From Caedimonas varicaedens (lineage in GTDB: Bacteria > Pseudomonadota > Alphaproteobacteria > Caedimonadales > Caedimonadaceae), in assembly GCA_001192655.1 (NCBI GenBank), contig BBVC01000012.1, positions 1-18,450 of the forward strand: a DNA stretch of 18,450 bases, in the 5' to 3' direction. The notes below the pieces were generated by a model. That model was given only the letters and a program-made list of their open reading frames with translations. It did not search any database and was not told the DNA's origin. Positions 615-18,450 of the stretch are shown here, one piece after another. The translations under genes were made by a program, and so were the position numbers. Within the stretch, counting starts at the first letter, position 1, and each line of letters starts with the position of its first letter.

Positions 615-633
615 TCATTAATCTCTTTTTTCC

Positions 634-2151: not shown

Positions 2152-2275
2152 CAATTATTTTCCAGTTTTTTAGAGAACACTTTCTAAACTTTTGGAAAGA
2201 CATTCATATTTGCTTGCATACAAAGTTAGCCTAAGGAAAGGTTTCAAACTGTAAAGTAGTGTTTGCTCAGCACAC

Positions 2276-2312
2276 ACTTTTGAGAATCCTCCTTTTCGAA
2301 ATTCTCAAAAGT
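2276..2312. repeat. perfect 12-bp inverted repeat (stem-loop) between convergent genes
   Basis: acttttgagaat (2276-2287) and attctcaaaagt (2301-2312) are exact reverse complements around a 13-nt loop. There is no flanking U-tract on either strand, so this is not a classical terminator. Confidence 0.5.
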
Positions 2313-2338
2313 ATTCACCAATGATAGAGAATAATGAA

Positions 2339-2629: not shown

Positions 2630-2786
2630 GGAGTACCCCCTTTCTTCATTTAGAATGAAAAAAAGGACATTAATTCACAAGTTCTAAAAACTTATATTTT
2701 TCTAAGGTACGTAAATATCAGATTTTGGAGACTTGAGAGGGAGATGTAAATTCATCTCTGCCAGACTATTAAAGTTTCTTTAATAC

Positions 2787-2816
2787 AAAAAAACGCCGGA
2801 ATAATAACTCCGGCGT
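2787..2816 (-). terminator. rho-independent terminator of the 63-aa gene
   Basis: GC-rich stem cgccgga (2794-2800) / tccggcg (2809-2815) with an 8-nt loop. On the - strand it is followed by 7 U (the + strand A-run at 2787-2793). It lies about 30 nt after the stop at 2847. Confidence 0.8.
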
Positions 2817-2846
2817 TTTAAAAGTAGACAAACTAATTTTAGCTGT

Positions 2847-3038
2847 TTACTTGGTTTCTTCTGTTGCAGTTGTTCCTTCTTTGGAAGTTTCTGCAGAAGT
2901 GTCAGCACCTTGTTCAGTTGCATTGGTCTCTGTTGCTTGACCTTCTTTGGATTGATCCATCTTTGAAGCTTCGCCTTCAACAGCCATAGCAGCACTGAAA
3001 CCAAAAACAACGATAAGAGCAGCAAAAATTGCCTTCAT
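2847..3038 (-). CDS. small secreted acidic Thr/Glu-rich protein
   Basis: 63-aa ORF with signal peptide MKAIFAALIVVFGFSAAMA-VEG, then a low-complexity E/T/S/K/G tail. GGAG lies about 9 nt upstream of the ATG. It is bracketed by a good promoter and a good terminator. Confidence 0.7.
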   Translation of the reverse strand: MKAIFAALIVVFGFSAAMAVEGEASKMDQSKEGQATETNATEQGADTSAETSKEGTTATEETK

Positions 3039-3094
3039 AATTCATTCTCCATAAATTTATTACCACACGGTACTGTTTATCCGTGATAGCGATG

Positions 3095-3122
3095 ATATTA
3101 ACAATTTTTTTTAGAGGTGCAA
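3095..3122 (-). promoter_or_regulatory. sigma70-like promoter for the 63-aa gene
   Basis: On the - strand, TTGCAC (3117-3122) - 16 nt - TAATAT (3095-3100). This predicts a ~50-nt leader containing the hairpin cacgg/ccgtg. Confidence 0.4.
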
Positions 3123-3199
3123 GATTTTTTTTAATAAAAATCATTTTTTACGGTGATTGGGATCATGATCAATCCTTTTTGTTGCTAAAATAACTTGCT

Positions 3200-4117
3200 A
3201 TGAGTATCACAGTAGGTGAAGAGGAGATGTGCAAAATGAACCGCCATCAGCAGACTGAACAAACACGAATAGGTGTTTTTTACATGGCTATTGCCATTTT
3301 TATGTTTTCTACAGTGAATGCTGTCGTCAAGGATGTTATGGGAGTCTATCCCCTGATGCAGATTATCTTTCTAAGGTTTTTTTTCGCCCTGCTTCCTTGT
3401 TCCTTTATGGTTTACCAAAATGGTGGCATCAAAAGTTTGAAAACACCTAATCTTAAAAGTCATTTCTTTTGCGGCAGTCTTGCAGTCTTGAATCTTGCCT
3501 TGCTTTTTTCTTCCTTTAAAGTATTGCCCCTTGCAGATGTAACAGCCTTTGCGTTCTCAACAATCTTATTTATTACATTACTATCATATCCCCTTTTGAA
3601 AGAGATTGTTGGTCTTCATCGTTGGTTTGCGGTTATTTTGGGGTTTGGGGGAGTTTTAATTATGCTTAATCCCTCAGGGGAATTATTTCATATTGGCTCC
3701 TTGATGGCACTTGTTTTTGCTTTTGGAGATGGCCTTATCATGATTTTTGCGCGTCTTTTGTCACGTACAGATAAAAGCAGTACTATTGTTTTTTATTGTT
3801 CGCTTATTGCCGCAATGATTGCTGCATTTTTCGTACCATTTGTTTGGGTGATGCCTAATGTAACAGATTTTTTTAAACTTGTTTTCCTGGGTATTGGTTC
3901 AGGAACCGCTCAAATTCTTCTGACTTATGCCTATCGCTATGCTCAAGCCACCTTGATTGCTCCTGTCATTTATACGGCAATTTTGTGGAGTGCTTTCTAT
4001 GGTTATTACTTTTGGGGTGAAGTTCCAAGCTCAGAAGCCATTTTTGGCGGCTCTCTTGTTATTTTTTCTGGTCTTTACCTTATTTATTGGGAAAAACGTC
4101 AAGCTCACCTTGCTTGA
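3200..4117 (+). CDS. DMT superfamily (EamA/RhaT-like) transporter
   Basis: 305-aa ORF with ~10 TM segments in a two-EamA-domain-like layout, about the usual 300-aa length. The true start may be the Met at 3236 (MNRHQQ...), because the first 12 codons look non-conserved. Confidence 0.85.
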   Translation: MSITVGEEEMCKMNRHQQTEQTRIGVFYMAIAIFMFSTVNAVVKDVMGVYPLMQIIFLRFFFALLPCSFMVYQNGGIKSLKTPNLKSHFFCGSLAVLNLALLFSSFKVLPLADVTAFAFSTILFITLLSYPLLKEIVGLHRWFAVILGFGGVLIMLNPSGELFHIGSLMALVFAFGDGLIMIFARLLSRTDKSSTIVFYCSLIAAMIAAFFVPFVWVMPNVTDFFKLVFLGIGSGTAQILLTYAYRYAQATLIAPVIYTAILWSAFYGYYFWGEVPSSEAIFGGSLVIFSGLYLIYWEKRQAHLA

Positions 4118-4178
4118 GAGGAAAGTAACTTGTAGAAGCTCAACATTTTCACTGTTTTACCAAGATTGAAAATAGCCC

Positions 4179-4206
4179 TTGACAGTTGTGAATGTGTCGA
4201 TATAGC
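4179..4206 (+). promoter_or_regulatory. sigma70-like promoter upstream of the APA antiporter leader
   Basis: TTGACA (4179-4184) - 16 nt - TATAGC (4201-4206). It would give a ~145-nt leader before the ATG at 4357. Confidence 0.45.
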
Positions 4207-4228
4207 GTTTAAATTGAAAGTTTATATT

Positions 4229-4291
4229 ATGAATAGAATATTTTTACACATTTTTACTTATCCTTCTCGAAAACGTCACCCCAGGGCGTAA
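4229..4291 (+). promoter_or_regulatory. candidate 20-codon leader uORF (MNRIFLHIFTYPSRKRHPRA)
   Basis: An ATG about 16 nt downstream of the predicted TSS, with a weak GAAAG 8 nt upstream, then 20 sense codons and TAA at 4289-4291. It lies wholly in the leader of the antiporter gene. It is too short to validate from sequence alone. Confidence 0.25.
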
Positions 4292-4356
4292 TTAATCATT
4301 ATCTTATTTATTTTCTATGTTTTTACTGAATTTTTATCTCTGAGAAGGAGAGTTTA

Positions 4357-5661
4357 ATGTCTAACAAAATTGGTTTTTGGTCTGTTTTTGCGTTGGTAAC
4401 AGGAAGTCAAATCGGAACAGGCGTTTTTATGTTGCCCGCCAATTTAGCACCCTATGGCGTTTTAAGTTTGGGAGGTTGGGTCATTGCGGGGGGGGGTGCA
4501 GTCATTCTTGCCCTCGTTTTTGCCCAACTTTGTGCAAGATTCCCTCGAACGGGTGGACCTCATGCCTATGTCCAGGAGGCTTTTGGCCCTACAGCTTCTT
4601 TTTTTTCTGGCTGGACCTACTGGGTGATTTCCTGGGCCAGCACACCTGCGGTCGTAATCGCAAGCGTGGGTTATCTTACGCCTTTGATCGGATATTATCC
4701 TCCCGCTGTCTCCTTGAGTCTGCAAGTAGGATTGCTCTTGATTATTACCGCTCTTAATTTCAGAGGGGTCAAGATCGCTGGTCTTGCTGAGTTCTTTCTG
4801 ACAAATCTCAAGATTATCCCGCTTCTGATACTACCTATTGCAGCGTTATTCTTTTTTGATAGCCAACATTTCAGCTATGGGGAATCAGCTTCTCAAATGA
4901 GTGTTCATCAAATTCTGAGTCATGTAACATTATTAACCTTGTGGGGGTTTATTGGTCTTGAATCCGCAACAACTCCTGCGGATTCTATAGAAAACCCTTC
5001 TAAAACAATTCCGCGTGCGGTGATTTTTGGAACAATTTTTGTAGCCGTTCTCTATTTTATTAATAGTTTAGGTATTATGGGAGCTATCCCCGGACATGAG
5101 TTGATGAATTCTAAAGCGCCTTACGCCGATGCAGCTCAGGTGATTTTTGGAGGGAATTGGCATCTTGTTATTTCGTTGATCGCTTCAATCATTTGTATTG
5201 GAACTCTCAATGCTTGGATGCTTGCTAGCGGACAGGTCGCTCTGGGGCTTGCTGAAGATAAACTGATGCCTGCATTTTTTGCGAGAAGAAATCGTTACGG
5301 AGCACCATTCTGGAGTCTTTTGACAAGTTGTTCAGGAATTATCTTGATTCTGATCCTGACATCAAACGAAAATCTCTCTCATCAAATTACAGCTATTATT
5401 GATTTTTCTGTAACTGCTTTCCTGTTTGTGTATGTCATGTGCACTCTTTCTTTTTTGAAAATACTTCTGCAACAATCACAAAGGGTTCCTTTCTGGCAAT
5501 GGCTTTGTGGAGGGGGGGCTTTAATTTTTTGTTTGTGGGCTATAAGCTCAACATCATTTCAAAACCTTGTTTATGCCAGTTTATTTACACTGAGCGGAGT
5601 TCCTGTTTATCTGCTGCAGAGAAGAAAGAAAAACTGTCGCGAGAAATCCGTTATCATTTAA
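4357..5661 (+). CDS. APC superfamily, APA-family basic amino acid/polyamine antiporter (AdiC/PotE/CadB-like)
   Basis: 434-aa ORF with a strong AAGGAG SD. GSQIGTGVFMLPANLAPYG, FPRTGGPHAYV and LWGFIGLESATTPADSIENPSKTIPRA align closely with remembered E. coli AdiC segments ([37 protein letters not shown]). Confidence 0.9.
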   Translation: MSNKIGFWSVFALVTGSQIGTGVFMLPANLAPYGVLSLGGWVIAGGGAVILALVFAQLCARFPRTGGPHAYVQEAFGPTASFFSGWTYWVISWASTPAVVIASVGYLTPLIGYYPPAVSLSLQVGLLLIITALNFRGVKIAGLAEFFLTNLKIIPLLILPIAALFFFDSQHFSYGESASQMSVHQILSHVTLLTLWGFIGLESATTPADSIENPSKTIPRAVIFGTIFVAVLYFINSLGIMGAIPGHELMNSKAPYADAAQVIFGGNWHLVISLIASIICIGTLNAWMLASGQVALGLAEDKLMPAFFARRNRYGAPFWSLLTSCSGIILILILTSNENLSHQITAIIDFSVTAFLFVYVMCTLSFLKILLQQSQRVPFWQWLCGGGALIFCLWAISSTSFQNLVYASLFTLSGVPVYLLQRRKKNCREKSVII

Positions 5662-5715
5662 CCTGTTTTTTTAAGCCGTTTCTGTTGATGCAGGAGTGGC
5701 AACGGTTAATTATGC

Positions 5716-5745
5716 TTGACATCTCTAATGTATCCTTAAATAATA
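5716..5745 (+). promoter_or_regulatory. possible promoter upstream of the NhaC-family gene
   Basis: Perfect TTGACA at 5716-5721, followed 15-18 nt later by an A/T block (TAAATAATA) offering several mediocre -10 hexamers. A terminator-like hairpin at 5844-5861 lies between it and the gene, which weakens the call. Confidence 0.3.
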
Positions 5746-5908
5746 AACCATCACTTTTAGGATGTGAGACCTTGAGTATTATTTTTCGTATTATGATGTC
5801 ATCTAAATCTCGAATGTGCCTTCAGCACATATAATTTCTATTAAAAGGCATTACAGCCTTTGATTTCCTTTTGTTTTTTTATTTATATGAGAGATTCCGA
5901 GGCTTTTC

Positions 5909-7192
5909 ATGACATTAATTATCCATTTTTTACCTATGTTATTATTTGTCACACTTTATCTTGGTACGGGTATTTACTTTGCGGCTATGGAAGTTGAGAA
6001 TGCGTTTTATCAATTACCCCCTACAGCGGCTATTATTCCTGCTCTGGTGTTGAGCTGGATATTGCATCAGGGTTCTATACAAGAGCGTATGCACCGATTT
6101 CTGGATGGTGTGAGACATCGCGACATTATAACCATGTGTGTGATTTTTTTGCTGGCGGGGGCTTTTAGCACAATCACCAAAACCATTGGCAGTGCAGATG
6201 CAACTGTCAATCTGGCTTTATCTTTGGTCTCTCCCAGATATTTGCTGATGGGCGTTTTCTTGACAGCAGCTTTCATTTCAACAGCGATTGGAACTGCCCT
6301 GGGAACAATTGCAACGCTTGGTCCCATTGCTCTGGGGTTATCTCAGCAGGGGGCTTTTCCTCTCGAATTGGGGATGGCAACAGTGGTTGCAGGGTCTATA
6401 TTTGGCGATAATCTGTCGATTATCTCAGATACAACAATTGCTGCTGTGATGTCCCAAGGAGCGGATATGAGAAAGAAATTGAGGATCAATGCAGAAGTTG
6501 CAGCGGTTGCATCTCTTGTTACGCTTCTCATTTTGTTTTTTGTCCATGACAATGAGATTGTTATTCAATCGAAAGAATATTCCCTGTTTCTGATTACTCC
6601 CTACCTCTTTTTGATAGGTCTTGCTGTTTCGGGGGTCAACGTTTTCGTTTCTCTTGTGCTGGCATTGGCTTTTTCAGGAGCCGTTGGTTATATTCACGGA
6701 GGATATAGTCTTTTGGACTTGAGTCGTGACATTGACCATGGTTTTGCCAGTATGCGGGAAATTATGATGCTTTCCATGATGGTGGGAGGGTTGTCAGGAT
6801 TGACAGGAAAAGGATCGGAAGCTTTGGCTGTGCGTCTTGTTGGTTTTGCTTCACGTCGGGAAAGCAAGAAGATCGCCCAGCTTCTTATTGCAAAAACAGT
6901 GTCCATCTTCGATCTGCTTTTGGCCAATAATGTCATTGCCACGATCTGTAGCGGCGAAATTGCGCGGGAAATTTCTAAAAAATATCACATTCCACCTCAT
7001 TATAGTGCGGCCTGGCTGGATAGTTTTTCTTGTGTTTTTCAGGGCATTATTCCTTATGGAGCGCAAGTTTTGCTGGCCAGCGCCATTGCAGGTGTTTCTC
7101 CTCTGAGCATTATGGGGCATGTCTATTATTGCTATGTCCTTGGTATTGTTTCTGTTCTTTATATTTTATGCATCAAAAAATTGAGAGATTAA
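5909..7192 (+). CDS. NhaC-family (Na_H_antiporter Pfam-type) membrane transporter
   Basis: 427-aa polytopic ORF with GAGG 8 nt upstream. The motif GSIFGDNLSIISDTTIAAV resembles the FGD..SPISDTT signature of the NhaC family. Substrate is not inferable. Confidence 0.75.
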   Translation: MTLIIHFLPMLLFVTLYLGTGIYFAAMEVENAFYQLPPTAAIIPALVLSWILHQGSIQERMHRFLDGVRHRDIITMCVIFLLAGAFSTITKTIGSADATVNLALSLVSPRYLLMGVFLTAAFISTAIGTALGTIATLGPIALGLSQQGAFPLELGMATVVAGSIFGDNLSIISDTTIAAVMSQGADMRKKLRINAEVAAVASLVTLLILFFVHDNEIVIQSKEYSLFLITPYLFLIGLAVSGVNVFVSLVLALAFSGAVGYIHGGYSLLDLSRDIDHGFASMREIMMLSMMVGGLSGLTGKGSEALAVRLVGFASRRESKKIAQLLIAKTVSIFDLLLANNVIATICSGEIAREISKKYHIPPHYSAAWLDSFSCVFQGIIPYGAQVLLASAIAGVSPLSIMGHVYYCYVLGIVSVLYILCIKKLRD

Positions 7193-7293
7193 ATGTCTGA
7201 AGTCATCAATTTTATGGATTTAAGAAGAAGCTCTTGTTTCTTGTGATCTATTTTAAATCGCGCTAGAATAAGGAAAAATAAGGGTGGAGCGTC

Positions 7294-10200
7294 ATGAAAA
7301 AGATTATTATGGGCTTTTTTGGTTTTTGCTTTGCTTTGGTCGCTATTGCCTTTCTTATCCCTTTTCTGATTGATGTTAATACCTATAAACCTGAAATTTT
7401 GGCAAAAACAAAAGAAGCTTTGGGGCGTGATTTAACCATTGAAGGTAAAATCTCTCTTCGCTTGCTGCCCCTTCCTACCCTTTCTGTTGATAAAATTCAG
7501 TTAGCCAATGTATCTGAAGGATCTCAGCCCTCTATGGCGTCTGTTGACAGAGTAGAACTGCAGATTGCGCTGTTCCCTCTTTTCAGTAAAAAAGTAGAAA
7601 TTGACAAGATCAAGCTTGTGGGAGCGAATATCTTTCTGGAGCGCCTTGGCAATGGGCGCGGAAATTGGGAGTTCTCTCCGTTTCAGAGAAAAGAAACGTC
7701 CGCTCTTTCTCCTTCCTCTTCTCTTCCTGCTTCTTCTGCCTCTGCGCCATCTTCCCAGTTCTTTGATGTGAGCATCAAATCCTGTGAAATTACGGAAGGA
7801 CAACTGAAGTATAAAGATGGAGAAACTCTCTATGATGTGCATAACATTTCTTCCAATATCAGTCTGACATCCTTGCAGGGACCTTTTCATGCAAAAGGTC
7901 AATTAGATTATAAAACTGGTCAAACAGTTTATTTTGAAGTTGATTTGGGAACATTTAAAGATACACAGTCTCTCAGGGCAAATTTGACTCTTGGGAAGAG
8001 TCAAATAAAAACGGAAGGGACGCTGAGTACCATCGATAAATCATATAAGGGTACATTGGAAGGGACGGGTGAGTGGGAGAATCTTGCGCAATTGGCAGGC
8101 TTTAATTTTGTGGTTCCGACTTTTCTAGGAAAGCAGCTTGATGCAAGAATGGATGTCAGTGCATCATTAAAAAAAATTCTGCTGGATAACCTATCTCTAC
8201 GAGGTGGTGATCTGTCTGCTAAAGGACATTTTTCGATCTTTTTGGAAGATAACGTAAAAATACAGGGTGAATTGAATGGTCTGCCCGGTGCGTTGGGAAT
8301 TTCGTTTTCCTCACAGCAAAAGAAGAACGATTTGGGCGGCTTTTTAAAGGTTAATGTGAAAGATCTGAAAAGCTTTTTAAAGCACATTCATTATGATGTA
8401 GCAAGCGTTCCAGAACCCTTGCTTCAGGCATCTTCCTTCAACACTCATTTTAGCGTCACGCCCTTAAATATCAATTTCTCTGACCTGAATTTAGACTTTA
8501 CGTCTGCTAGGGTCGGAGGAGAAATGAAATGGTTGCGGCAAACATCCAAGCCTTCTTTTTCCGTAAACCTGCAAACAGATAATTTAAATCCCTTTCTGGC
8601 ATTGCTGGACATTAAGATGATTGCCAATCAAAAAACCGCCGGCACGATTAAGGGAAAAATTGAGGGAGATCAAAAGAATCTAACATTTGATACGCAAGCG
8701 ACTCTTGACTCAACGGTCATTACCTTGCAAGGGCAAGCGAGAGATCTTGCGCAGCACGCGAGTTTTGAGACAAAGCTTGATATCAAATCCACCTCTTTTA
8801 TTGATCTTTTGAAACGTTTTGAGGTGACATTGCCTTCGCTCTTTAATCACATTGATGTTACCGGGAAGATAGGCGGAGATCTTGCAAAAATACAGATGGA
8901 TACCCGTACGACGCTGAAAGATTTCATTCTGCTTACCCAAGGATTTATCAACAACATAAGCCAAAAGCCAAATTTTGATATCCATATTTCTGCCAGCCAT
9001 CCTGATATAAAGCGATTACTGGGAGCCTTGGGTACATCAGCTCATACAACGTCAGGTCCCTTTACTCTGAAAACACATTTGGGGGGTACTCCTTCTCTTT
9101 TCAAATTAGGTGACATCCAGGGGCTTTTGGGAGCAGCAGGGTCATTTTCAGGATCAATTGATTATTCCCGGCCCGAGACCAAACCTTATATTAATGCAAG
9201 TCTGCGCTTTACCAGCGTTAACCTGGATCATTTGCTTTCTTTCTTGAAAGATTCTGCCACTGTTCCAGCTTTTCCCCACATCATGTTAGCGGCAACAGCA
9301 ACTTCCCCTATGCACTCTCCTTGGTCCCGGGATATTTTGGATCTTAATTTCCTCAGTTATTTTGATGTGGATTTCAAGTTGACGTCCGAGAAAATTTCAA
9401 AAAAAGAAATGGTTTTTGACCACCCTGATTTGATAGCTCAGATCAAAAATGGCATTTTAAAAATAGTGAAGGTAACGGCTTCTGTTTACGGGGGCAGTTT
9501 TACGCTTAAGGGGCAGACGGATAGTCAAAAGAATAATGCAAGTCAATATACGTTCGCTCTCAAGGGTGCTGAATTAAAGAACCTTTCTCCTAAAGAATCA
9601 TCTGTAAAAATAACTCATGGCCAGCTGGATGTTAATGGAAACCTTGTAACATCGGGAAATAGTATTTACAAACTGGTCAGCGCGTTAGAGGGAAAAATCA
9701 CTTTAGATGCCCATGATGGAATTATCAGCGGCTTTGACCTTCAAGCAATTACATCCAATCTTATGAAGCAAAATCGCTTGGAAGGAATCGTCAATTTGCT
9801 TTCTGCTTCTTTTAAAAAAGGGGAAACTCCTTTCTCCAGTCTTGAAGGACTAATTGACATTCAACAGGGCATTGCTCATATCAAAAAGTTGACATTATTG
9901 GCCAAGGGAGGAGAAGGAGCGGCTCATGGAACGATCGATTTTCCTGCCTATACCATGAACGTTGATGCACGGTTTTCTCTGACAGAGCCTAAAAATATCC
10001 CTTCTATTGGCGTGAAATTTATCGGATCTATTGATGCTCCTGTCCGAACAATCGACAGCGATGCCTTACAAAAACATATGACCACCAATGTTCTGAAAGA
10101 TGTTATTGGAAGCATTACGTCAGGCGAGAAAAAACCAGCGGACATCCTCGGAGCCATTCTTGGTGGTGGTGGAAGTGACGAGCAAGCGTCTCCCTCTCCA

Positions 10201-10296
10201 CAAAGCTCGAATCCTGCTCCGCAAAACTCTGATGCCGATAACATCGTAAAAACTCCGGAGAAGGCCCTCAAAAGTTTATTGAAGGGATTATTTTAG
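7294..10296 (+). CDS. AsmA-family envelope protein
   Basis: 1000-aa ORF with a GGTGGAG SD. It has an N-terminal TM anchor, then the typical AsmA opening (FLIPFLIDVNTYKPEILAKTKEALGRDLTIEGKISLRLLPLPTLSVDKIQLAN). The body is long and beta-rich. The C-terminal AsmA_2-like part is G.L.L.DG.I.GFDL, with a low-complexity tail. Confidence 0.9.
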   Translation: MKKIIMGFFGFCFALVAIAFLIPFLIDVNTYKPEILAKTKEALGRDLTIEGKISLRLLPLPTLSVDKIQLANVSEGSQPSMASVDRVELQIALFPLFSKKVEIDKIKLVGANIFLERLGNGRGNWEFSPFQRKETSALSPSSSLPASSASAPSSQFFDVSIKSCEITEGQLKYKDGETLYDVHNISSNISLTSLQGPFHAKGQLDYKTGQTVYFEVDLGTFKDTQSLRANLTLGKSQIKTEGTLSTIDKSYKGTLEGTGEWENLAQLAGFNFVVPTFLGKQLDARMDVSASLKKILLDNLSLRGGDLSAKGHFSIFLEDNVKIQGELNGLPGALGISFSSQQKKNDLGGFLKVNVKDLKSFLKHIHYDVASVPEPLLQASSFNTHFSVTPLNINFSDLNLDFTSARVGGEMKWLRQTSKPSFSVNLQTDNLNPFLALLDIKMIANQKTAGTIKGKIEGDQKNLTFDTQATLDSTVITLQGQARDLAQHASFETKLDIKSTSFIDLLKRFEVTLPSLFNHIDVTGKIGGDLAKIQMDTRTTLKDFILLTQGFINNISQKPNFDIHISASHPDIKRLLGALGTSAHTTSGPFTLKTHLGGTPSLFKLGDIQGLLGAAGSFSGSIDYSRPETKPYINASLRFTSVNLDHLLSFLKDSATVPAFPHIMLAATATSPMHSPWSRDILDLNFLSYFDVDFKLTSEKISKKEMVFDHPDLIAQIKNGILKIVKVTASVYGGSFTLKGQTDSQKNNASQYTFALKGAELKNLSPKESSVKITHGQLDVNGNLVTSGNSIYKLVSALEGKITLDAHDGIISGFDLQAITSNLMKQNRLEGIVNLLSASFKKGETPFSSLEGLIDIQQGIAHIKKLTLLAKGGEGAAHGTIDFPAYTMNVDARFSLTEPKNIPSIGVKFIGSIDAPVRTIDSDALQKHMTTNVLKDVIGSITSGEKKPADILGAILGGGGSDEQASPSPQSSNPAPQNSDADNIVKTPEKALKSLLKGLF

Positions 10297-10336
10297 GAAC
10301 GCTTACACTCTTGGGTGGAAAACATTAATCCTTTTC

Positions 10337-10365
10337 TTGACACTGTCCTGTAATCTTCTTTTAAT
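10337..10365 (+). promoter_or_regulatory. sigma70-like promoter for etfBA
   Basis: TTGACA (10337-10342) - 17 nt - TTTAAT (10360-10365), 31 nt upstream of the etfB ATG. GTGAGG SD at 10385-10390. Confidence 0.5.
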
Positions 10366-10395
10366 AAAGAAAAAATAGAGAACAGTGAGGCACCC

Positions 10396-11145
10396 ATGAA
10401 AGTTTTAATCGCGGTAAAACGGGTTGTGGATTACAACGTAAAAGTCCGGGTTAAACCTGATCATACAGGTGTTGACCTGGTCAATGTTAAAATGTCCATT
10501 AATCCTTTTGATGAAATTGCTGTTGAAGAGAGCGTACGTCTTCTTGAGTCAGGTCAGGCAAAAGAGCTGATCGTTGTTTCTATTGGGCCTCTTCAAGCGC
10601 AAGAAACGCTGCGTTCAGCGCTGGCACTGGGCGTAGACAGAGGAATCCTTGTTCAAACAGATGAAACAGTCGAACCCCTTCATGTTGCAAAAATTCTTAA
10701 AGTCCTTGTCGAACGTGAAAAACCGGACCTTATTCTTCTTGGCAAGCAAGCCATTGATGACGATTGTAATCAGACAGGACAAATGCTGGGAGCGCTTCTA
10801 GGCTGGCCGCAAGGTACTTTTATCTCCAAACTTGTTCTTCAAAATTCAGAGGCAATCGTCACCCGTGAAGTAGATGGGGGGCATGAAACGCTGAAAATAT
10901 CCTTGCCTGCTGTCATCACAACAGACTTGCGCCTCAATGTTCCCCGTTATCCAAAACTTCCCAATATTATGAAAGCAAAGCAAAAACCTCTTGAGATCCT
11001 TTCTCTTGAAACGCTTGGAATTGTGTTAAGCTCCCATCATAAAATTTTAAAAGTTGCCGAACCTCAGACTCGCAAGGCAGGCATCAAGGTAAAAGATGTT
11101 GCTGATCTTGTTCATCATCTGCATGAAGAAGCGAGGATCATATAA
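10396..11145 (+). CDS. etfB: electron transfer flavoprotein beta subunit
   Basis: 249 aa. MKVLIAVKRVVDYNVKVRVKPD..., INPFDEIAVEE, LLGKQAIDDDCNQTGQMLGALLGWPQ and the C-terminal PKLPNIMKAKQKP are all classical EtfB segments. Confidence 0.95.
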   Translation: MKVLIAVKRVVDYNVKVRVKPDHTGVDLVNVKMSINPFDEIAVEESVRLLESGQAKELIVVSIGPLQAQETLRSALALGVDRGILVQTDETVEPLHVAKILKVLVEREKPDLILLGKQAIDDDCNQTGQMLGALLGWPQGTFISKLVLQNSEAIVTREVDGGHETLKISLPAVITTDLRLNVPRYPKLPNIMKAKQKPLEILSLETLGIVLSSHHKILKVAEPQTRKAGIKVKDVADLVHHLHEEARII

Positions 11146-12089
11146 TGACAGTTCTTATTGTTGGAGAACATGACAATACAATTCTGACACCTTCTTCGCT
11201 GCATATGATTTCGGCAGCTCAAAAACTGGGGGGAGACATTGATCTTTTAATCGCGGGAGAAGGATGTTTGCAGGTTGCTCAAAAAGCTTGCAAAATAGAA
11301 GGGCTTCGCAAGGTTCTTTTGTTGGACAAGCCAGAACTGGGACATCATGGGGCGGAAGCCATGGGAGAGGCCGTGGTGCAGATTGGAAAAAGCTACGATT
11401 ATATTATGGCGCCCGCGACAACTTTTGGGAAAAATTTTCTTCCCCGAGTTGCTGCTTTATTGGATGTTGCTCAAATTTCCGATGTTATCGGGATTGAAAG
11501 CAAGGATACATTCGTTCGTCCCATTTATGCGGGAAATGCCATCGTGACTCTACAGTCAAACGATGCTCTCAAAGTCATGACAGTTCGTCCCACTGCTTTC
11601 TCTGCTGTTTCGGTGGGCTCGGGAACGGCAACTCTTGAGAATGTCAGCGCTTCTTTTACGGCAAGGTCTTCAGTTTTTGTAGATCGAAGCGCGGTCAAAT
11701 CCGGACGTCCTGAATTGACGGCGGCACGTGTTGTGGTTTCTGGGGGAAGGGGATTTCAAAACGCCGAGAAATTTAAAATGATTGAAGTCTTGGCGGATCA
11801 ATTGGACGCTGCTATTGGTGCGTCACGGGCTGCGGTTGATGCGGGGTATGTTTCCAATGATTATCAGGTGGGGCAAACAGGAAAAATTGTTGCTCCTGAG
11901 CTTTACATTGCCATCGGCATTTCGGGCGCTATCCAGCATTTGGCAGGCATGAAAGACAGTAAAGTGATTGTGGCCATTAACAAGGATCCTGATGCACCTA
12001 TTTTTCAGATTGCCGACTATAGCCTGGTGGGAGATTTATTCGATATCGTTCCTCAACTCATCCAGTCCCTGCAGGACCTAAAAACCTAA
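11145..12089 (+). CDS. etfA: electron transfer flavoprotein alpha subunit
   Basis: 314 aa. Its start overlaps the etfB stop (TAATG), with GAGGA 8 nt upstream. The FAD-binding C-terminal signature is [60 protein letters not shown]. Confidence 0.95.
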
Positions 12090-12090
12090 T

Positions 12091-12216
12091 ATACCCTTCG
12101 CCTTTCAAAATCCGGAGTCGTTGGACTTCGGAATTCGTCCTGCTCACGTACTTTATGTACGCTGCACGGGACTCACCACTCGTCTTCCTACCCAGATTTT
12201 GAAATCCTTTGGGTAT
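12091..12216. repeat. ~126-bp nested palindromic intergenic element (REP/RPE/MITE-like) between convergent etfA and the LysR gene
   Basis: The outer arms are ataccc......tttcaaaatcCgg (12091-12115) and ccAgattttgaaa......gggtat (12191-12216), pairing 6+10(+2) bp. An inner hairpin ccggagtc-gttg-gacttcgg sits at 12112-12131. A second imperfect hairpin gtcctgctcacgtac-tttat-gtacgctgcacgggac sits at ~12137-12171. Confidence 0.6.
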
Positions 12217-12352
12217 AGGATATAAAAAAGTTCTTCCTTATTTCCTTCCCTCTTGCCATTCGGATGTTTTTGCCATATAGTTAAGTTGTTGTATTTCAAA
12301 TAGTTATGAAGGTGTATAGAGATGAAAATAGTTAGAGTTGAAGGTATATCTG

Positions 12353-13237
12353 TTAGGCCTTGGCTTTATCCGTAAGGTGCTTTTTTTTAAAAACTCCTTG
12401 CAGGTAATTGCCCAAGAGGTGAACTGTTTGAAATTTTTTGAGAGAAGTAGGATATACATAATAGATAGTGCTAGAAGGGCCCTCCACATTTGGAAGTACC
12501 CGTATAAGTTTGAATCGTTCTATGAATGAAGAATCATGAGATAAGGCAATAATACCTAAACCTGCTTCCGCAGCTTGACACATGCAATCCAAAGAATTAA
12601 AGCGCAAGAAAGGTTTCCTGGACTGTCCTGTTGGCATACCTATAGTTAATAACCAATCTTTATTTAGCTTGTTTGTTATGGGCTTAGATTGCGTATCGAA
12701 CAAGATAATTCTATGATTTTCTAATTCTTCTGGTCTTTGAGGTAAGCCTGTTTTATGAAGATAGCTTTGGCTTGCAAATAACTGTAGTCTTCTTTCATGA
12801 AGGAAAATTTGTTCCAATTCCGTAGCACCAGGATCAAAAGTAGTGATAGCAACATCGGCTTCCCTTTTCGTTAAATCAGGGTTCATATCGTCACAGGAAA
12901 GCGTAATGTGAATCTGGGGGTAAAGCTTGATGAAGCCTTTTATATGCTGAAAAAGAACAGCTGAAGCGTAAGCATGCGTTGTTGTGATCACTAATTCTCC
13001 TGAGATCTCCTCAGCCTTGCCGGACATTTGATTTTGTGCCAGCTCAATTTCAGTCATCATATTTTTCACATGATTGAAGAGGATTTCTCCTTGTTGAGTC
13101 AGAATCAATCCCTTGCGATTACGAATAAAAAGCTTTGAGTTAGCCTGATGTTCCAGTTGCTGGATGCTGCGTGTGACTGAGGGTTGAAACGTACCAAGAC
13201 GCTCTGCCGCTCGTGAAATGCTTCTTTCTTTGGCCAC
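12353..13237 (-). CDS. LysR-family transcriptional regulator (start codon problematic, possibly decaying)
   Basis: 294 aa from GTG 13237. It has an HTH (SISRAAERLGTFQPSVTRSIQQLE), then a LysR substrate-binding domain of normal length. Family-typical N-terminal residues (DYLRHFYY) continue upstream of the GTG to an in-frame TGA at 13271-13273, with no start codon between. No SD precedes the GTG. Confidence 0.8.
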   Translation of the reverse strand: MAKERSISRAAERLGTFQPSVTRSIQQLEHQANSKLFIRNRKGLILTQQGEILFNHVKNMMTEIELAQNQMSGKAEEISGELVITTTHAYASAVLFQHIKGFIKLYPQIHITLSCDDMNPDLTKREADVAITTFDPGATELEQIFLHERRLQLFASQSYLHKTGLPQRPEELENHRIILFDTQSKPITNKLNKDWLLTIGMPTGQSRKPFLRFNSLDCMCQAAEAGLGIIALSHDSSFIERFKLIRVLPNVEGPSSTIYYVYPTSLKKFQTVHLLGNYLQGVFKKKHLTDKAKA

Positions 13238-13563
13238 ATAATAAAAATGCCTGAGATAATCCTTAGATTTTCAGTGGTTTTTAGTTTTGTTCTTTAAAAT
13301 TCATGCACCAATCATGCTCATAGAGACTTTCCCAGATGAAAGATATTTTTTAAGGACGAACTGATCTATTTGAGGATGAAATGGATTTTTTCGCTTTAAA
13401 ATTCATTAAAAATAGATAATAATGCATGGGTGGTATCTGATTATTGAAAGTATGGCAATGGGCATCCCAATAATGATTTTTAAAAACTTCTATCTCACGA
13501 TCGTATAAATCAATAATCAAGAGAGTCATAGATTGTAAATAATTTTAACAGACGGAGATTCAC

Positions 13564-13758
13564 ATGGACAGATACAACATAACAACCCATCAAGGCAGAC
13601 TGCAAATTGTCTTCAAATTAAAGTTGGAGCTATTGCGAGATATAATTTTTGGCAAGTATAAAGCAAGTGCTAAAGACCTTATAAATCTTGTGTCAGATTT
13701 GATAGAAATTAGACAAAAGTTGCAATCTATGCAACCAAAGATGGCATATTTGCAATGA
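13564..13758 (+). CDS. 64-aa ORFan, paralog 1 of a tandem pair
   Basis: GGAG lies 8 nt upstream of the ATG. It is ~30% identical to the next ORF, sharing blocks LQIVFKLKLELLRDII/LEILFRLKLEALQNII and LVSDLIEI/LVSDLLEI. It has no signal peptide or TM segment and is predicted helical. Confidence 0.6.
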   Translation: MDRYNITTHQGRLQIVFKLKLELLRDIIFGKYKASAKDLINLVSDLIEIRQKLQSMQPKMAYLQ

Positions 13759-13790
13759 GTCTATTTTCTATTTCTGAGACGAGAGCATAA
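13755..13790 (+). pseudogene. relic 5' end of the MFS transporter gene, left by tandem duplication
   Basis: atgagtctattttc... encodes MSLFS, as at the real transporter start at 14001 (atgagtttattttc...). It overlaps the upstream stop in the same ATGA arrangement. A 1-nt indel then leads to TAA at 13788-13790. It is offset exactly 246 bp from the functional copy. Confidence 0.55.
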
Positions 13791-13809
13791 ACAGAAGGAA
13801 AAGTTTTCC

Positions 13810-14004
13810 ATGGGTTTGAAAAGCAAATTGAGTTATCAACAAAATTTAGAAATTCTCTTTAGACTAAAGCTGGAAGCATTGCAAAATATAATTAATGACA
13901 GTCATTTTCACAAAGAGATAACAGATATTAAAACTCTCGTTTCAGATTTGTTAGAAATTGCCGTCAATTATGAATCAAAAACACTAAGAGAGATAGCGTC
14001 ATGA
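13810..14004 (+). CDS. 64-aa ORFan, paralog 2, translationally coupled to the MFS transporter
   Basis: AAGGAA lies about 10 nt upstream of the ATG. Its stop overlaps the transporter start (ATGA at 14001-14004). It is a paralog of 13564..13758. Confidence 0.65.
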   Translation: MGLKSKLSYQQNLEILFRLKLEALQNIINDSHFHKEITDIKTLVSDLLEIAVNYESKTLREIAS

Positions 14005-15368
14005 GTTTATTTTCATTCCTGAAACGGGAACAAAAGGAAGCCATAGGGCTGTTGCAGATTGGCACTTTCCTTGAATATTTTGACTTGATGCTCTACGTTC
14101 ACATGGCTGTCCTTCTCAATGATCTTTTCTTCCCCAAAGCTGACCCACATACCGCCTCTTTGATTGCTGCTTTTGCCTTCTGTTCCACCTATGTTTTACG
14201 TCCTTTTGGGGCTTTATTATTTGGCTGGATCGGTGACAATATAGGGCGTAAAACCACAGTCATCATTACGACAATGATGATGGCGGTACCATGCTTGATT
14301 ATGGCAAATTTGCCGACTTATTCCCAAATTGGCATTTCAGCAGCATGGATTGTCACTCTTTGTCGTATGATTCAAGGACTTGCTTCTATGGGAGAATTAA
14401 CCGGTGCCGAAATTTATTTAACTGAAACACTAAAATTTCCAAGACACTACCCAATTGTGGCATTATTAGCGATTTCATCTTCTCTTGGCCCCTTTCTTGC
14501 CTTAGCTGTAGCTTCTCTTGTAACTAGTTCTGGTTTTAACTGGCGGCTTGCTTTTTGGATTGGTGCAGGGATAGCTCTTGTTGGTTCTGCTGCTCGAACA
14601 CGTCTGAGAGAAACACCTGAATTTGTGGATATGAAAAAAACGATAAAAAGAGCTATTGAAATCTCTAGCTGTGATGGTTTAGAAAAGGCAGCGCAATTGC
14701 TCAAAAGTACTAATATCCTTTGGAAAGAAAAACTGAATAAGAAAACAATGGTCTCTTATTTTCTTATTCAATTGGGGTGGCCTATATTTTTTTATTTTAC
14801 ATATATGCACTGTGGTAATGTATTAAAAAATCGATTTGGATTTACTCCAGAGCAAGTTATCCATCAAAATTTTAAAGTCTCTTTTTTTCAGCTTTTCAGT
14901 TTCATTATTGTTGTTTTTGTATGCAAGAAGATTAATCCGTTATTAATATTAAAAATAAGGGCATATGTTCTATTTTCTTTTGTTTGTTTCGTACCCTTTG
15001 TTATGAATCAATTAACGTCGCCAATAGAACTGTTCTTTTTGCAGTCAGCTTTTATTTTTTTTCCATTATGTGTGGTTCCCGCTGTTCCAATTTTTGTTAA
15101 ACATTTTCCTGTTTATCGCCGTTTTACTTGTAACAGCTTTATTTTTGCTTCATCACGTGTTTTAGGATACCTCATCACTTCATTTGGAATTGTATATTTA
15201 ACGGAAACCTTTGGAAGTTACGGTTTGTGGATCATGATGATTCCATCGTGTCTGAGTTTTCTATGGGGAGTCCATCACTTTGAAAAGCTAGAAAAACAAT
15301 TTGAAACACCGACAAATACAAAAGATTTAGCAGAGGAACTGATGGCGTCTCGATCTTTTAGAGCTTAA
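14001..15368 (+). CDS. MFS transporter, metabolite:H+ symporter (MHS/ProP-like) family
   Basis: 455 aa. The N-terminus FLEYFDLMLYVHMA matches the MHS E(W/Y)(Y/F)D..(L/I)Y motif. FGWIGDNIGRKTTVIITTMMM matches the MFS loop 2-3 motif. It has 12 TM-like segments with a central hydrophilic loop. The gene is very AT-rich. Confidence 0.85.
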   Translation: MSLFSFLKREQKEAIGLLQIGTFLEYFDLMLYVHMAVLLNDLFFPKADPHTASLIAAFAFCSTYVLRPFGALLFGWIGDNIGRKTTVIITTMMMAVPCLIMANLPTYSQIGISAAWIVTLCRMIQGLASMGELTGAEIYLTETLKFPRHYPIVALLAISSSLGPFLALAVASLVTSSGFNWRLAFWIGAGIALVGSAARTRLRETPEFVDMKKTIKRAIEISSCDGLEKAAQLLKSTNILWKEKLNKKTMVSYFLIQLGWPIFFYFTYMHCGNVLKNRFGFTPEQVIHQNFKVSFFQLFSFIIVVFVCKKINPLLILKIRAYVLFSFVCFVPFVMNQLTSPIELFFLQSAFIFFPLCVVPAVPIFVKHFPVYRRFTCNSFIFASSRVLGYLITSFGIVYLTETFGSYGLWIMMIPSCLSFLWGVHHFEKLEKQFETPTNTKDLAEELMASRSFRA

Positions 15369-15633
15369 TAACCTTGCCTGTTAAACTTGACCGTTGCTAA
15401 CATGATCTCATGTGTATTGCTTAACTCTTCCATACGATATTCTGTATGTCAAGCTCTTAATTTCTTCAAGAAGCGTAAAAAATTTAGAGATGGATTTTTA
15501 AACTTTTAGCAGAATAGCTGCATTAAAAATAGAACTACGAAAAAATTTTTAAGCACGAATGCAGTTGAGGTACGTTAAGATTGAAACTCCTTAAACACCC
15601 TATCGCTTCCCTGATGCACATCCTTTTTCACCT

Positions 15634-17847
15634 TCACTCCTGCTTCCCCGTTTTCTCCTGCTTCCCCATTCCAAACCTTACCCCTGTTCTGAGTCCTCTT
15701 TGCATGTATTGCCAGAGCTTACCTTCTTCCCGCACAGGGGTCATGAGAATTTGCGCCGTTTCCGTGTCTTTAAGGGCTTTGTCCAGCAATTCCTGACGAA
15801 TGGCCTCTTTTTCCTTGCCCAAAGCTTTATGAATCAGCTCCACCACCTTTCCTCCGGCGGGAATCTTACGAAACAGTTTTTTAAAGAGATGCAATGGCAA
15901 CGATTGATAGGCCTCCAATACCGAAAGATTGCGGGACTTGCCCAACAGCGTATCCGTAAAATGCTGGGCATTGGCCAGGCTTTTAAGGCGTGTTTCCAAC
16001 CGGGGATACAGGACAAAAGCCCCAGGATGATTCTTCTGCCAGGTATGAATCTTTGTTGTGGAGACTTTGCCCTGTTCGTCCGTGATAAAATCCAGCACCG
16101 ATTTGTTGATGGTGCCTTCCAAAGATTGACGCGCTTTTTCTCCCTGCTTTCCATGAAGATGCTTCATGAGGTCTTTGGCATCATCCACCGATTTAAGGGA
16201 GGTGCCAACGACTTTTGAGGGAATCTCGGAATCAGACAGGGTATATTGACGGCTATAGGTGTCTTTCTTCTCGCCGACCATTCTGCCCAACGTGCGATGC
16301 TCTTCAATGTTGTTGATGGGTTTGGACAACTCTTCGTAAGTACGGCGATATTCAAGTCCCTGGGGCAAGGATTCCAGATCTTTCTCAATGGCTTGCTTCA
16401 CTTCAGTGAGTTCCCGTGCCAAACTGTCCTTGCCCTGTTTACGGGCGCTGCTGATTTCATCGCCCAACCATTGCAGGGTCTTATCAATTTCTGCCGGTCT
16501 CGGTTGTCTTGTCCGGGGAGCATTCCCTTCCAGCCCTTGAATCTGCTTCCTTAACTGGATCACGGTAGGGCTGGGATTTTTCGGGTCATAAAATTTGTTG
16601 TTTTCCGCTTGAGCCAATAAACTTTTATAAAGGGAGAGTTCTTCTCGTTGTTGAGGACTCAGAGGACTATGTTCCATCGGCGTAGGATCATTGGCTTCTA
16701 GTTCTCTCCTCGTTTTCTCAAGGTGAGAGCGGGTGCTCCCTTTGGCGGTTTTGAGCTTTTGATCAATCACTGCATGACCTTGTGTGGGTTCTAACCCTTC
16801 TTCAACCGCATAGAGGTCTTGATAAAGAGGTTCTGTAACCTCTTTGCGTTTGCTCTTCAAATTCTGCACTTTATGCAACAAGGTTTTTCGTACGCTATCA
16901 CCAGCCTGATCAGGCAAGACCTGATGAGACTGAATTGGATTAACATGTTCCGAAACGTTGATGTCGTGACTAAAATCAACACTCTGAGGATCGTATTCTA
17001 AGGAAGTGTGAGGAGCATCAGGATTCTCTTTCCATCGTCGGGCTTGACGGGAGAGCCAACTGTCTCGAGGAGCATTCTCTCCTTTCATGGTTTCCCTTAA
17101 AATACCGCCGATTTCTTTTTCCGCACCGGGACGAGCCGCTTCTCGCCGATACTCTGGAGAAAATACCCATTTTCCCCCTTGAGCTCCTTTTTTACCGACA
17201 GCCGTCACGACAGGCGCCATGATATCGGCCACCAGAGGATTAACACCGCCCTCTTGTAAAAGTCCTGATGTCGCTCCCATCGTGGCATCCTTGCCTAAAG
17301 AAAGACCCAGACGTTTGGCGACTTCCCAGACTAATGCGGGCATCGTTGAGACTGCTTTCGCCCCTTTCAGAACATTTCCACCGGGCGTGACAATGCCTGA
17401 GCCCATCCAGTCGCCGCCATGATAGGCCATGCAGCTCACAGGACTGTGAAGGTTTTTAAGGGTTTCCTCATCCCTATGGGCAAGTTCCTGATTGCCTGCT
17501 TTCAGAATCTGGTCATGTTGATCCACATAAGGGGAGAGATCGTCTTGAGTGGACATCCACATCTTCATTTCCTGAGCCATAGGATCTGATGTTGCCAATC
17601 CCATCCCGGTTTTCAGCGCTCCTGAAAGAGCGCTTTTGCCGATCGCTTGAGGAAGTTCTGAGATCAAGGAAGGGGTTTTATTGTCATCCGATCCTTGCTG
17701 TTTAAAAGCTCCCCGGCGTGCGAGTTCCTCTCGAATGGCTTTCTTACGACCTTCAGGGGGGGAGAGAGGAGTTACTGTTCCTAGCGGATTCAGGGCACCC
17801 CGCCGTTCCAGTTCTGCCTGTATGGCTAACACCCGTGGATGATTCAT
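15634..17847 (-). CDS. 737-aa hypothetical protein (ORFan; possibly phage/mobile-element-derived)
   Basis: A long uninterrupted ORF in a ~52% GC block, with GAGGG about 10 nt upstream of an ATG that lies 3 nt after the upstream stop. It has an N-terminal duplicated 12-aa motif, a Gly-rich middle, and a K/E/Q/L-rich helical C-terminal half. No signal peptide or TM segment, and no Walker A or HExxH motif that I can see. Confidence 0.8.
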   Translation of the reverse strand: MNHPRVLAIQAELERRGALNPLGTVTPLSPPEGRKKAIREELARRGAFKQQGSDDNKTPSLISELPQAIGKSALSGALKTGMGLATSDPMAQEMKMWMSTQDDLSPYVDQHDQILKAGNQELAHRDEETLKNLHSPVSCMAYHGGDWMGSGIVTPGGNVLKGAKAVSTMPALVWEVAKRLGLSLGKDATMGATSGLLQEGGVNPLVADIMAPVVTAVGKKGAQGGKWVFSPEYRREAARPGAEKEIGGILRETMKGENAPRDSWLSRQARRWKENPDAPHTSLEYDPQSVDFSHDINVSEHVNPIQSHQVLPDQAGDSVRKTLLHKVQNLKSKRKEVTEPLYQDLYAVEEGLEPTQGHAVIDQKLKTAKGSTRSHLEKTRRELEANDPTPMEHSPLSPQQREELSLYKSLLAQAENNKFYDPKNPSPTVIQLRKQIQGLEGNAPRTRQPRPAEIDKTLQWLGDEISSARKQGKDSLARELTEVKQAIEKDLESLPQGLEYRRTYEELSKPINNIEEHRTLGRMVGEKKDTYSRQYTLSDSEIPSKVVGTSLKSVDDAKDLMKHLHGKQGEKARQSLEGTINKSVLDFITDEQGKVSTTKIHTWQKNHPGAFVLYPRLETRLKSLANAQHFTDTLLGKSRNLSVLEAYQSLPLHLFKKLFRKIPAGGKVVELIHKALGKEKEAIRQELLDKALKDTETAQILMTPVREEGKLWQYMQRGLRTGVRFGMGKQEKTGKQE

Positions 17848-17850
17848 GGC

Positions 17851-18369
17851 TTATTGTCCCTCTAAGGATTGAAACTCCTTCATCAGGTCTTCGGTGGAGA
17901 GAGCACTTAAATCTTCTCCTGCTGTCTGTCCTGTGGGAAGAGGAACATCGTCCTCCTCATCGGACACCACCATTTTTCGCCTGAGACCCTGCTGATATTT
18001 CTGTGCCATACGGATATTCTTCTGAGCCCGTGTTTCCCAATCCCCCGCAATATTCTCAAACCCTTCTTGTGTTAAAGTTCCCCCAGGAGAGGATTCAGCA
18101 ATGGTCTTTTTCAAAAGGTCAGTTCCGACTTTACCCGGTGTTCCTAAAATCGTGGCCAGATTCAGATCCGAGGCATGTTTTTTAAGTTGCTGAAGGGCCG
18201 CCAGTTTTTTCTTGTCCGCCATCTTCCGTCCCAAGACCTGCCAGAAACCCGCTTCTTTTTTAGGATCGTTGCTGCCGGACAGCCATTGCACCCAGTCCGA
18301 GCCAATATCAGGGTGATCCTTAAACAGTTTGCGCATTTTGGTAATCGTCTGCAAGGCGCGCTTATTCAC
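17851..18369 (-). CDS. 172-aa hypothetical protein, coupled to the 737-aa ORF
   Basis: Same strand and composition as the 737-aa ORF. An in-frame TAA at 18445-18447 closes the frame upstream, and GTG 18369 is the only canonical start before Met12. It is basic and helical at the N-terminus and has an acidic tract, SDEEDDVPLP...EDLSALSTEDL, near the C-terminus. Confidence 0.65.
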   Translation of the reverse strand: MNKRALQTITKMRKLFKDHPDIGSDWVQWLSGSNDPKKEAGFWQVLGRKMADKKKLAALQQLKKHASDLNLATILGTPGKVGTDLLKKTIAESSPGGTLTQEGFENIAGDWETRAQKNIRMAQKYQQGLRRKMVVSDEEDDVPLPTGQTAGEDLSALSTEDLMKEFQSLEGQ

Positions 18370-18450
18370 AGGAATCTCTCGAATGGTTTTAAGCGCGTTT
18401 TTTTGATAATCCGCACGAGCGGAAGGTTCTATAGCTAAAAACCTTTAAAA

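Follow-up and report, generated by a model that had tools for sequence, protein, structure and literature searches.

The locus considered here raises the question of what kind of DNA ends one contig of an endosymbiont genome, where a GC-rich block of two genes abuts an AT-rich neighbour. The window, i.e. the whole stretch that was analysed, is one complete contig of 18,450 bp (BBVC01000012.1) from the draft genome of Caedimonas varicaedens. This bacterium, formerly Caedibacter varicaedens, is the kappa killer endosymbiont of Paramecium biaurelia, and its draft genome was obtained with 454 reads as 142 contigs with a guanine plus cytosine (GC) content of 42.1% and about 100 transposase hits (PMC4645214). 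In an original prediction, made from the letters of the window alone, the block was described as a compositionally foreign module of two genes belonging to no family. The analysis reported here suggests that the block (15634-18429) is probably the end of the late operon of a temperate podovirus-like prophage, and that its two genes, here called pair A and pair B, are likely to encode internal virion or ejection proteins.

The base composition of the block is atypical of its host. It amounts to 49.1% GC in 15634-18450, compared with 40.9% in the host part of the window (1-13240) and 42.1% in the genome; the segment between them (13241-15633) has 34.9%. A two-segment maximum-likelihood fit placed the change point at 15596, within the 15,575-15,600 range that had been proposed from hand counts, and across it GC rises from 34.7% to 49.1%. 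The block lies about 4.5 standard deviations (SD) above windows of the same length from the host part (mean 40.9%, SD 1.8%, maximum 44.3%) and exceeds every one of them. GC at third codon positions is 48% in the two block genes and 26-42% in the other genes of the window, and the maximum of the tetranucleotide distance in the window falls in 15634-18450. The block is a real compositional island of foreign DNA, as predicted. The elevation that had been claimed was also confirmed, but not its extent: values of 52-53% occur only as local peaks and the mean is 49%.

Both open reading frames (ORFs) of the block are on the minus strand. The window therefore shows the 3' end of an operon and not, as had been supposed, the left end of a module. 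Pair B (15634-17847, minus strand) is an intact ORF of 737 aa that is full length relative to its homologues, and ORF, homologues and synteny mark it as the last gene of the late operon. The duplicated N-terminal motif (AIQAELERRGA and AIREELARRGA) and the Gly-rich core that had been noticed in its product are present. Pair A (17851-18429, minus strand), recognized by homology, comprises the 3' 193 codons of a gene for about 428 aa. Over these 193 aa it is 96.9% identical to residues 236-428 of the 428-aa product of L035:8031-9317, a prophage locus, and it is 54% identical to a 403-aa protein of locus L004. The gap between the genes is 3 nt, and a GAGG is located inside the last codons of pair A. 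Thus the tight coupling of two co-directional ORFs with an embedded Shine-Dalgarno sequence was upheld, as was the 737-aa length. The upstream partner had to be redefined: the predicted 172-aa ORF (17851-18369, minus strand, GTG start) is the tail of the larger gene. As a separate gene it was rejected as an ORF-finder artefact, since homologues align upstream of the GTG up to 18429. The pair A product is charged and helical, with a Q/M-rich N-terminus. The ratio of nonsynonymous to synonymous substitution rates (dN/dS) was 0.05 for the pair A fragment compared with L035 and about 0.12 for pair B compared with L001, where dS is saturated. These values, which reflect mostly the history before truncation, show at the level of codon comparison that both genes have been under purifying selection.

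That the two genes would be ORFans was contradicted by their relatives. For pair B, 14 relatives at 32-72% identity and one 100%-identical fragment were found, and a profile search extended the family to 242 cluster representatives at E <= 1e-3, of which 77 also pass E <= 1e-30; these proteins are about 600-1100 aa long. Homologues of the pair are present on IMG/VR viral contigs. A paralogue of pair B, Cva_00764 (P0011, 929 aa), occurs in C. varicaedens itself, which by this homology holds at least two divergent copies of the pair module. The number of C-terminal repeats of about 85 aa varies among pair B proteins; in the subgroup of P0010 (L004:10001-12823) and P0011, with lengths of 929-940 aa, three tandem copies of this domain (residues 547-632 of the window protein) are found.

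The library searches yielded a single family match for pair B, i.e. a weak one (E = 6.7e-5, residues 328-508) to phrog_5880, which has no annotated function. The same family was matched by 5 of 42 family members scanned (best 5.8e-8), and as a sequence match it confirms phage association only. One family member matches a 'head morphogenesis' PHROG. Neither pair protein had a match in Pfam, NCBIfam or PADLOC. No enzymatic, nuclease, NTPase or toxin domain was detected in the 42 family members, and no SLT or peptidase domain in these or in pair B of the window. PADLOC gave 0 hits for pair B, full-length pair A (from L035), the small ORFs and the transporter described below, and three neighbour proteins of related loci. 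The idea of an undescribed mobile or conflict system was not supported: the block does belong to a mobile element, but to one of a known kind, a podovirus-like prophage. Sequence-profile searches of the PDB with pair B returned nothing relevant, only designed helical repeats, and Foldseek found no match for it in the PDB. Scans of GTDB genomes with a single protein and with the alignment found no relative, and no match came from searching 50,697 phage records by tblastn with three members of the family. Pair A and pair B are a conserved, uncharacterised phage gene pair without a family model or a solved fold; the kind of element is known and the protein family is unnamed.

The phage membership of the pair is evident from the surroundings of its relatives. 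In a comparison of 25 family loci, 5 of which end before pair A could appear, pair A was found directly upstream of pair B in 20 of the 20 loci with enough flank, and an adaptor or nozzle gene was detected in 17 of the 25. Three Caedimonas-like contigs have a common order that starts with a PTL_trimer tail protein, followed by genes for about 210, 351, 153 and 100 aa and by an SU10-type adaptor (215 aa). After the adaptor come a 523-aa nozzle, genes for 76-82, 470-492, 322 and 410-428 aa and finally the pair B homologue of 742/743 aa (or split). A fourth locus, L001, begins inside the 523-aa gene, has the same order onward and ends in a 751-aa homologue. A tyrosine integrase lies beyond pair B in three of these four loci, at a distance of 0.1-6 kb. 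The 523-aa protein is the nozzle (PDB 8zkk 'nozzle gp16', phrog_3287), the 323-aa gene matches phrog_4287 'DNA ejection protein', and the 460-aa protein shows tape-measure-like Gly-zipper matches. The cultured Caulobacter phage GB2A (OR260089) has the order adaptor, fibre, nozzle, 78, 580, 333, 435 and 722 aa. Three of these (nozzle, 580 aa and 333 aa) have homologues among the prophage genes, at 25-39% identity, and the final 722-aa gene (gp062c) has a C-terminal SLT domain.

Some family loci have a different or a damaged arrangement. In L004-L006 the neighbours of the pair are an integrase and an HTH gene, and within 10 kb there are no structural genes. In L004 (6467-12823) the intact pair (403 + 940 aa) stands right after an integrase, a 71-aa ORF and a LysR-type HTH gene, all in the same orientation; the 10 kb upstream contain no structural genes and a transposase lies beyond, an arrangement unlike that of the other prophages. 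In L035 pair B is split into 255 + 507 aa. A decayed pair is found at L003:1299-2645, where pair A is frameshifted (207 + 113 aa) and only the last 127 aa or so of pair B are left after a deletion of about 600 aa.

The GC step at 15596 had been taken as the edge of the element. In L001 the structural genes have 50.1% GC and the downstream small genes plus integrase 37%. In L035 the values are 50.3% for the structural genes, 34.1% for a 272-aa gene plus integrase and 41.9% for host DNA, and in both loci the drop falls at the end of the pair B homologue. Since the same step from 50% to 34-37% recurs inside related prophages, 15596 is a module boundary within the phage and not a phage-host junction. 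Used alone, the GC step misplaces the phage boundary by about 2.3 kb here. The high GC of the block is a property of the late genes of this phage family, which has a built-in split: late genes are at about 50% GC, lysogeny and cargo genes at about 35%.

From its position the pair would work like a set of ejection proteins. In related prophages it follows an adaptor, a nozzle and two recognized ejection genes, and there it closes the late operon. The products of pair A and pair B would be packed in the capsid, would be expelled at infection and would help to build a DNA channel across the cell envelope. Pair B would then correspond in position to the largest ejection protein (T7 gp16-like), in a form that lacks the peptidoglycan-cleaving domain, and its Gly-rich, moderately hydrophobic segment (about 155-228) is a candidate for the membrane-interacting part. 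In an AlphaFold2 model of pair B built with 77 sequences, every secondary-structure element is a helix (pLDDT, the predicted local distance difference test score, 79.7; predicted template modelling score 0.60). The local score exceeds 90 for residues 300-640; for the conserved Gly-rich segment (155-214) confidence is low. Of the phage classes named in the original prediction, internal or ejection proteins fit the synteny after adaptor, nozzle and ejection genes; polyvalent proteins do not fit, as pair B has no Pfam domain.

The left limit of the element was defined by comparison with close relatives. A synteny comparison around the gene for a major facilitator superfamily (MFS) transporter next to the block had been proposed in the prediction, and when it was carried out this site indeed proved to differ. 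Loci L012-L015 (97% nucleotide identity) are collinear with window positions 2703-13262 and then diverge completely. L010 (99% identity) is collinear only to 12253, where an insertion sequence (IS) sits. At the same site in these relatives the element is absent, and different genes follow in L012-L015 and in L010; the L010 strain has a 72%-identical copy elsewhere, beside an integrase of its own. The variable segment is limited on the left by a host gene for a LysR-family regulator (12353-13262, minus strand), identified by collinearity and homology. At the 5' end of this gene (13237-13290), where the collinearity with the sister strains breaks off, the ancestral ATG has become CTG; small indels have also occurred, and a TGA is found in frame upstream. 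The 307 aa of the protein in relatives compare with 294 aa here, counted from the first available start, the GTG at 13237. To judge from these changes the gene may either have become a pseudogene or be restarted at this GTG.

Next to it is a junction region of about 280 nt (13263-13563) that matches neither the DNA upstream of LysR in the sister strains nor the phage module. Similarity to locus L033 starts at 13541, and no other matches were found in 13263-13563. The window has no integrase, no tRNA and no convincing flanking direct repeat. Neither att-like direct repeats nor integrase remnants were found in 13238-13600, and the junctions showed no Rfam family and no enrichment of promoters or terminators. 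Both breakpoints coincide with an inverted match of 16 nt (13269-13284 with 18435-18450), which was not used, its basis being a 9-mer in AT-rich DNA. The copy in the window is either truncated or has its integrase at the other end.

Between the junction and the block lies a module on the plus strand. It consists of two paralogous 64-aa ORFs, s1 and s2 (13564-13758 and 13810-14004), and the gene for an MHS/ProP-like MFS transporter (14001-15368, 37% GC, assigned by Pfam and NCBIfam). The second ORF overlaps the MFS start (ATGA). The small ORFs have 68% and 59% amino acid identity in L033 and L034, where they occur in the same order upstream of an MFS homologue, and their dN/dS values are about 0.66 and 0.28; with the MFS gene they are one module. 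It is separated from pair B by a convergent intergenic region (15369-15633) that extends from the MFS stop to the stop of the 737-aa gene and holds the change point. On the P0006 contig an MFS homologue and small ORFs are found between the pair B gene and the integrase. On the P0002 contig a 96%-identical MFS gene (P0052) adjoins the pair B gene, with different outer flanks. In L033 the small ORFs and the MFS gene (68%) stand last in a series of genes of one orientation, for a RecE-like exonuclease, a RecT-like annealase and proteins of 1010, 183 and 71 aa, and this locus and the L035 prophage are on the same 52.9-kb contig (JGI Ga0558718_05468). The MFS cluster at >=90% identity has 3 members, and four core-gene clusters that were also sized have 16-27. 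The AT-rich neighbour of the block had been taken for a host locus. Its absence in near-identical strains and its association with the phage family point to phage cargo instead: with moderate confidence 13541-15368 is considered AT-rich cargo and not host DNA, and the small ORFs and the MFS gene would be carried by the same phage family as the block.

The last 21 nt at the right contig end (18430-18450) lack homology to the phage gene, the break in the alignment with L035 falling at 18429/18430. This terminal 21-mer matches window positions 31-51 in inverted orientation at 18 of 21 positions, and the 9-mer TTAGCTATA occurs in the window only at the two contig ends (0.09 expected). An in-frame TAA is present at 18445-18447. 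On the basis of this match both contig ends probably run into copies of one repeat, an IS or a miniature inverted-repeat transposable element. This would explain the assembly break, and pair A would then be interrupted at about codon 235. It is also possible that the break is an artefact of 454 reads at the contig end. The terminal 21 nt were compared with the IS of L010 as well and rejected as an end of it, as the IS termini differ. The visible copy of the element appears damaged, because pair A is cut at 18429, no integrase is present on the MFS side and the LysR start has been lost.

Several observations weigh against the interpretation of the block as the end of a podovirus-like late operon with ejection genes. 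Only the final 2.8 kb or so of the element is within the window, where the contig end at 18450 leaves no virion structural genes visible next to the block, and no sequence or fold similarity of the pair to a solved ejection protein was found. The best 19-residue Kyte-Doolittle window of pair B scores 1.29, so that a classical transmembrane helix is lacking. A Foldseek search of BFVD, made with an earlier 12-sequence model of low confidence (pLDDT 57), matched long proteins of uncultured tailed phages at a template modelling (TM) score of only 0.2-0.3. A few of these are labelled LT_GEWL, Peptidase M15B, 'injection protein' or 'large polyvalent protein associated domain'; with such TM-scores and such a model the matches could reflect generic helical content. 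Alignment by hhalign of the pair B family with GB2A gp062c, its positional counterpart, gave a probability of 0.3%, i.e. no relation. Moreover, in 14 of 18 environmental viral contigs the adaptor and nozzle genes lie just downstream of the pair (directly after it where pair B is full length), and separate ejection-like genes (526 and 676 aa) come after the nozzle. The pair is then upstream of the adaptor and not after the ejection genes, which implies that its position is not fixed. Finally, the MFS gene and P0052 share 96% identity, compared with 68% for the phage proteins next to them, which also fits a host MFS gene as an integration landmark.

The order in the environmental contigs would suit a pair that is associated with the virion or its assembly in another way than ejection, be it as scaffold or chaperone, as tail-fibre or adaptor accessory, or in another capsid-internal role (e.g. 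anti-host). Pair A, charged and helical with a Q/M-rich N-terminus, is indeed scaffold-like, and the 'head morphogenesis' match of one family member points in the same direction. However, in the Caedimonas-type prophages and in GB2A the position is that of the large terminal ejection protein, a scaffold of 700-940 aa would be long, and the variable C-terminal repeats are not scaffold-like, so this explanation is considered unlikely. About equally unlikely is that the small ORFs and the MFS gene are ancestral host DNA with the prophage inserted beside them, which would place the phage-host junction at about 15369-15633. In intracellular alphaproteobacteria the MFS family has expanded greatly (2978 hits, several copies per contig), and the 96% identity just mentioned and the change point at 15596 agree with such a junction. 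It is contradicted by the sister strains (97-99% identity), which are without the MFS locus at this site, and by the small size of the >=90% cluster compared with those of the core genes. Likewise, the MFS gene stands between pair B and integrase on the P0006 contig and ends a RecE/RecT early operon in L033, and the GC drop is seen inside L001 and L035.

The reading favoured in the original prediction, in which the two genes form a mobile or conflict module (defence or toxin) on their own and outside any virion operon, was also considered, as neither protein belongs to any family and the pair of L004-L006 has an integrase and an HTH gene for neighbours instead of structural genes. With adaptor or nozzle genes in 17 of the 25 loci, IMG/VR homologues, no PADLOC hit and no effector domain among the 42 members, this idea is hardly credible. 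A domesticated phage remnant that serves the symbiont, for example as a component or toxin of killer-linked particles, is somewhat less far-fetched, though still improbable. It could account for an intact pair B next to a truncated pair A without an integrase nearby, for the purifying selection, for the intact L004 pair away from structural genes and for the paralogue Cva_00764 in the same genome, and phage-like particles have been tied to R bodies and an unidentified toxin in the literature (PMC11909080). On the other hand, the dN/dS values stem mostly from the time before truncation, the L003 and L035 copies are decaying and a direct link to killing is absent. The end of a podovirus-like late operon, with a pair that acts in ejection, is therefore the explanation that we prefer.

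Some further features of the window and of related strains were recorded as well. Seven proteins of the window agree exactly with C. varicaedens entries in GenBank, among them EtfB (GAO97624), the AsmA-like protein (GAO97623) and the MFS transporter (GAO97629). Just after etfA an imperfect inverted repeat with 26-nt arms and a 76-nt spacer was found (12090-12217). A 77%-similar copy is located at an unrelated intergenic site (L010:19463-19568), and the sequence may be a small dispersed repeat or a terminator element. L010 (JGI Ga0558718_01787, aligned to window 2086-12253) has two copies of its IS (a 329-aa HTH_23 gene plus a 118-aa gene), at the equivalents of about 5716 and about 12253. In the same locus the gene calls for etfA, the AsmA-like protein and the amino-acid permease are fragmentary, a sign of pseudogenisation in progress or of errors in the assembly. 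L012 and L013 contain a 120-aa Cupin_2 gene (L012:7288-7650), located between NhaC and the AsmA-like gene, that is missing from the window (at about 7214-7218), an indel of about 330 nt.

Taken by itself the block is routine, as a prophage fragment in a repeat-rich endosymbiont genome explains the GC anomaly. Its pair is a candidate for a new family of ejection proteins, of about 400 aa and 700-940 aa, strictly adjacent and with 242 representatives. It also provides a sequence handle on the prophages of Caedimonas, a symbiont in which phage-like particles, R bodies and a still unidentified toxin of the killers have been connected with each other since the 1970s.

The kappa particles of Caedibacter/Caedimonas, phage-like and accompanied by R bodies, are one of the known systems that come close, as they stem from the same organism. 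Phage-like particles have been linked to R bodies and the toxin (PMC11909080), and in a survey of 2013 no prophage was seen near reb loci in the 25 complete genomes examined (PMC3583457). Unlike the R-body loci, the window contains no reb gene. Four tandem RebB genes are present at L033:15486-16888, about 4 kb beyond the MFS module, with 49.9% GC, as in the late genes of the phage, versus 42% in the host. On their contig, Ga0558718_05468, which comes from the same sample as the 99%-identical strain L010, the reb genes and the L035-type prophage are found together with 14.6 kb between the loci. This linkage suggests that the R-body genes of Caedimonas may be phage-borne. That the prophage family is the 'kappa phage', the induction of which yields the phage-like particles and R bodies of Caedimonas killers, is a tentative proposal and on balance doubtful. 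If it were true, pair A and pair B would be packaged components of the killer particle and a new, structurally unassigned class of podovirus internal proteins.

The ejection proteins of podoviruses have been described as alpha-helical 'conformational gymnasts' that are usually assigned by size and synteny; gp16-like proteins measure 609-1337 aa, and in P22/Sf6-type phages the muralytic domain is absent or dispensable (PMC8954989). In the Bruynoghevirus Pa223 the order is adaptor, fibre, hub and needle, then three ejection genes (bioRxiv 10.1101/2025.06.11.659172). The pair differs from the T7, P22 and Pa223 proteins in that it has no sequence or fold similarity to the solved members, and from podovirus ejection sets in general in that four large genes instead of three follow the nozzle and that in environmental relatives the pair is upstream of the adaptor. 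Unlike the largest protein of T7 and GB2A, pair B has no transglycosylase or peptidase domain; in this it resembles P22/Sf6, and the feature is optional. From phage polyvalent proteins fused enzymatic or anti-defence domains would be expected, whereas pair B has no Pfam domain. GB2A shows no integrase within the 25 kb that were examined, no homology to the pair is detectable in its last two genes, and the SLT domain of gp062c is absent from pair B. The order is nevertheless identical to that of GB2A gp063c/gp062c 'lytic tail protein' (RW/RLK/KcrB group), where the last gene also ends the operon. Like the podovirus ejection proteins, the members of the pair are large, nearly all alpha-helical, fast-diverging and mosaic, with a flexible region of low confidence, and the 737 aa of pair B are within the gp16-like range. 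In the Caedimonas-type prophages the pair, like T7 gp14/gp15/gp16, P22 gp7/gp20/gp16 and Pa223 gp56/gp54/gp53, stands last in the tail cluster, with the adaptor and the nozzle or hub ahead of it.

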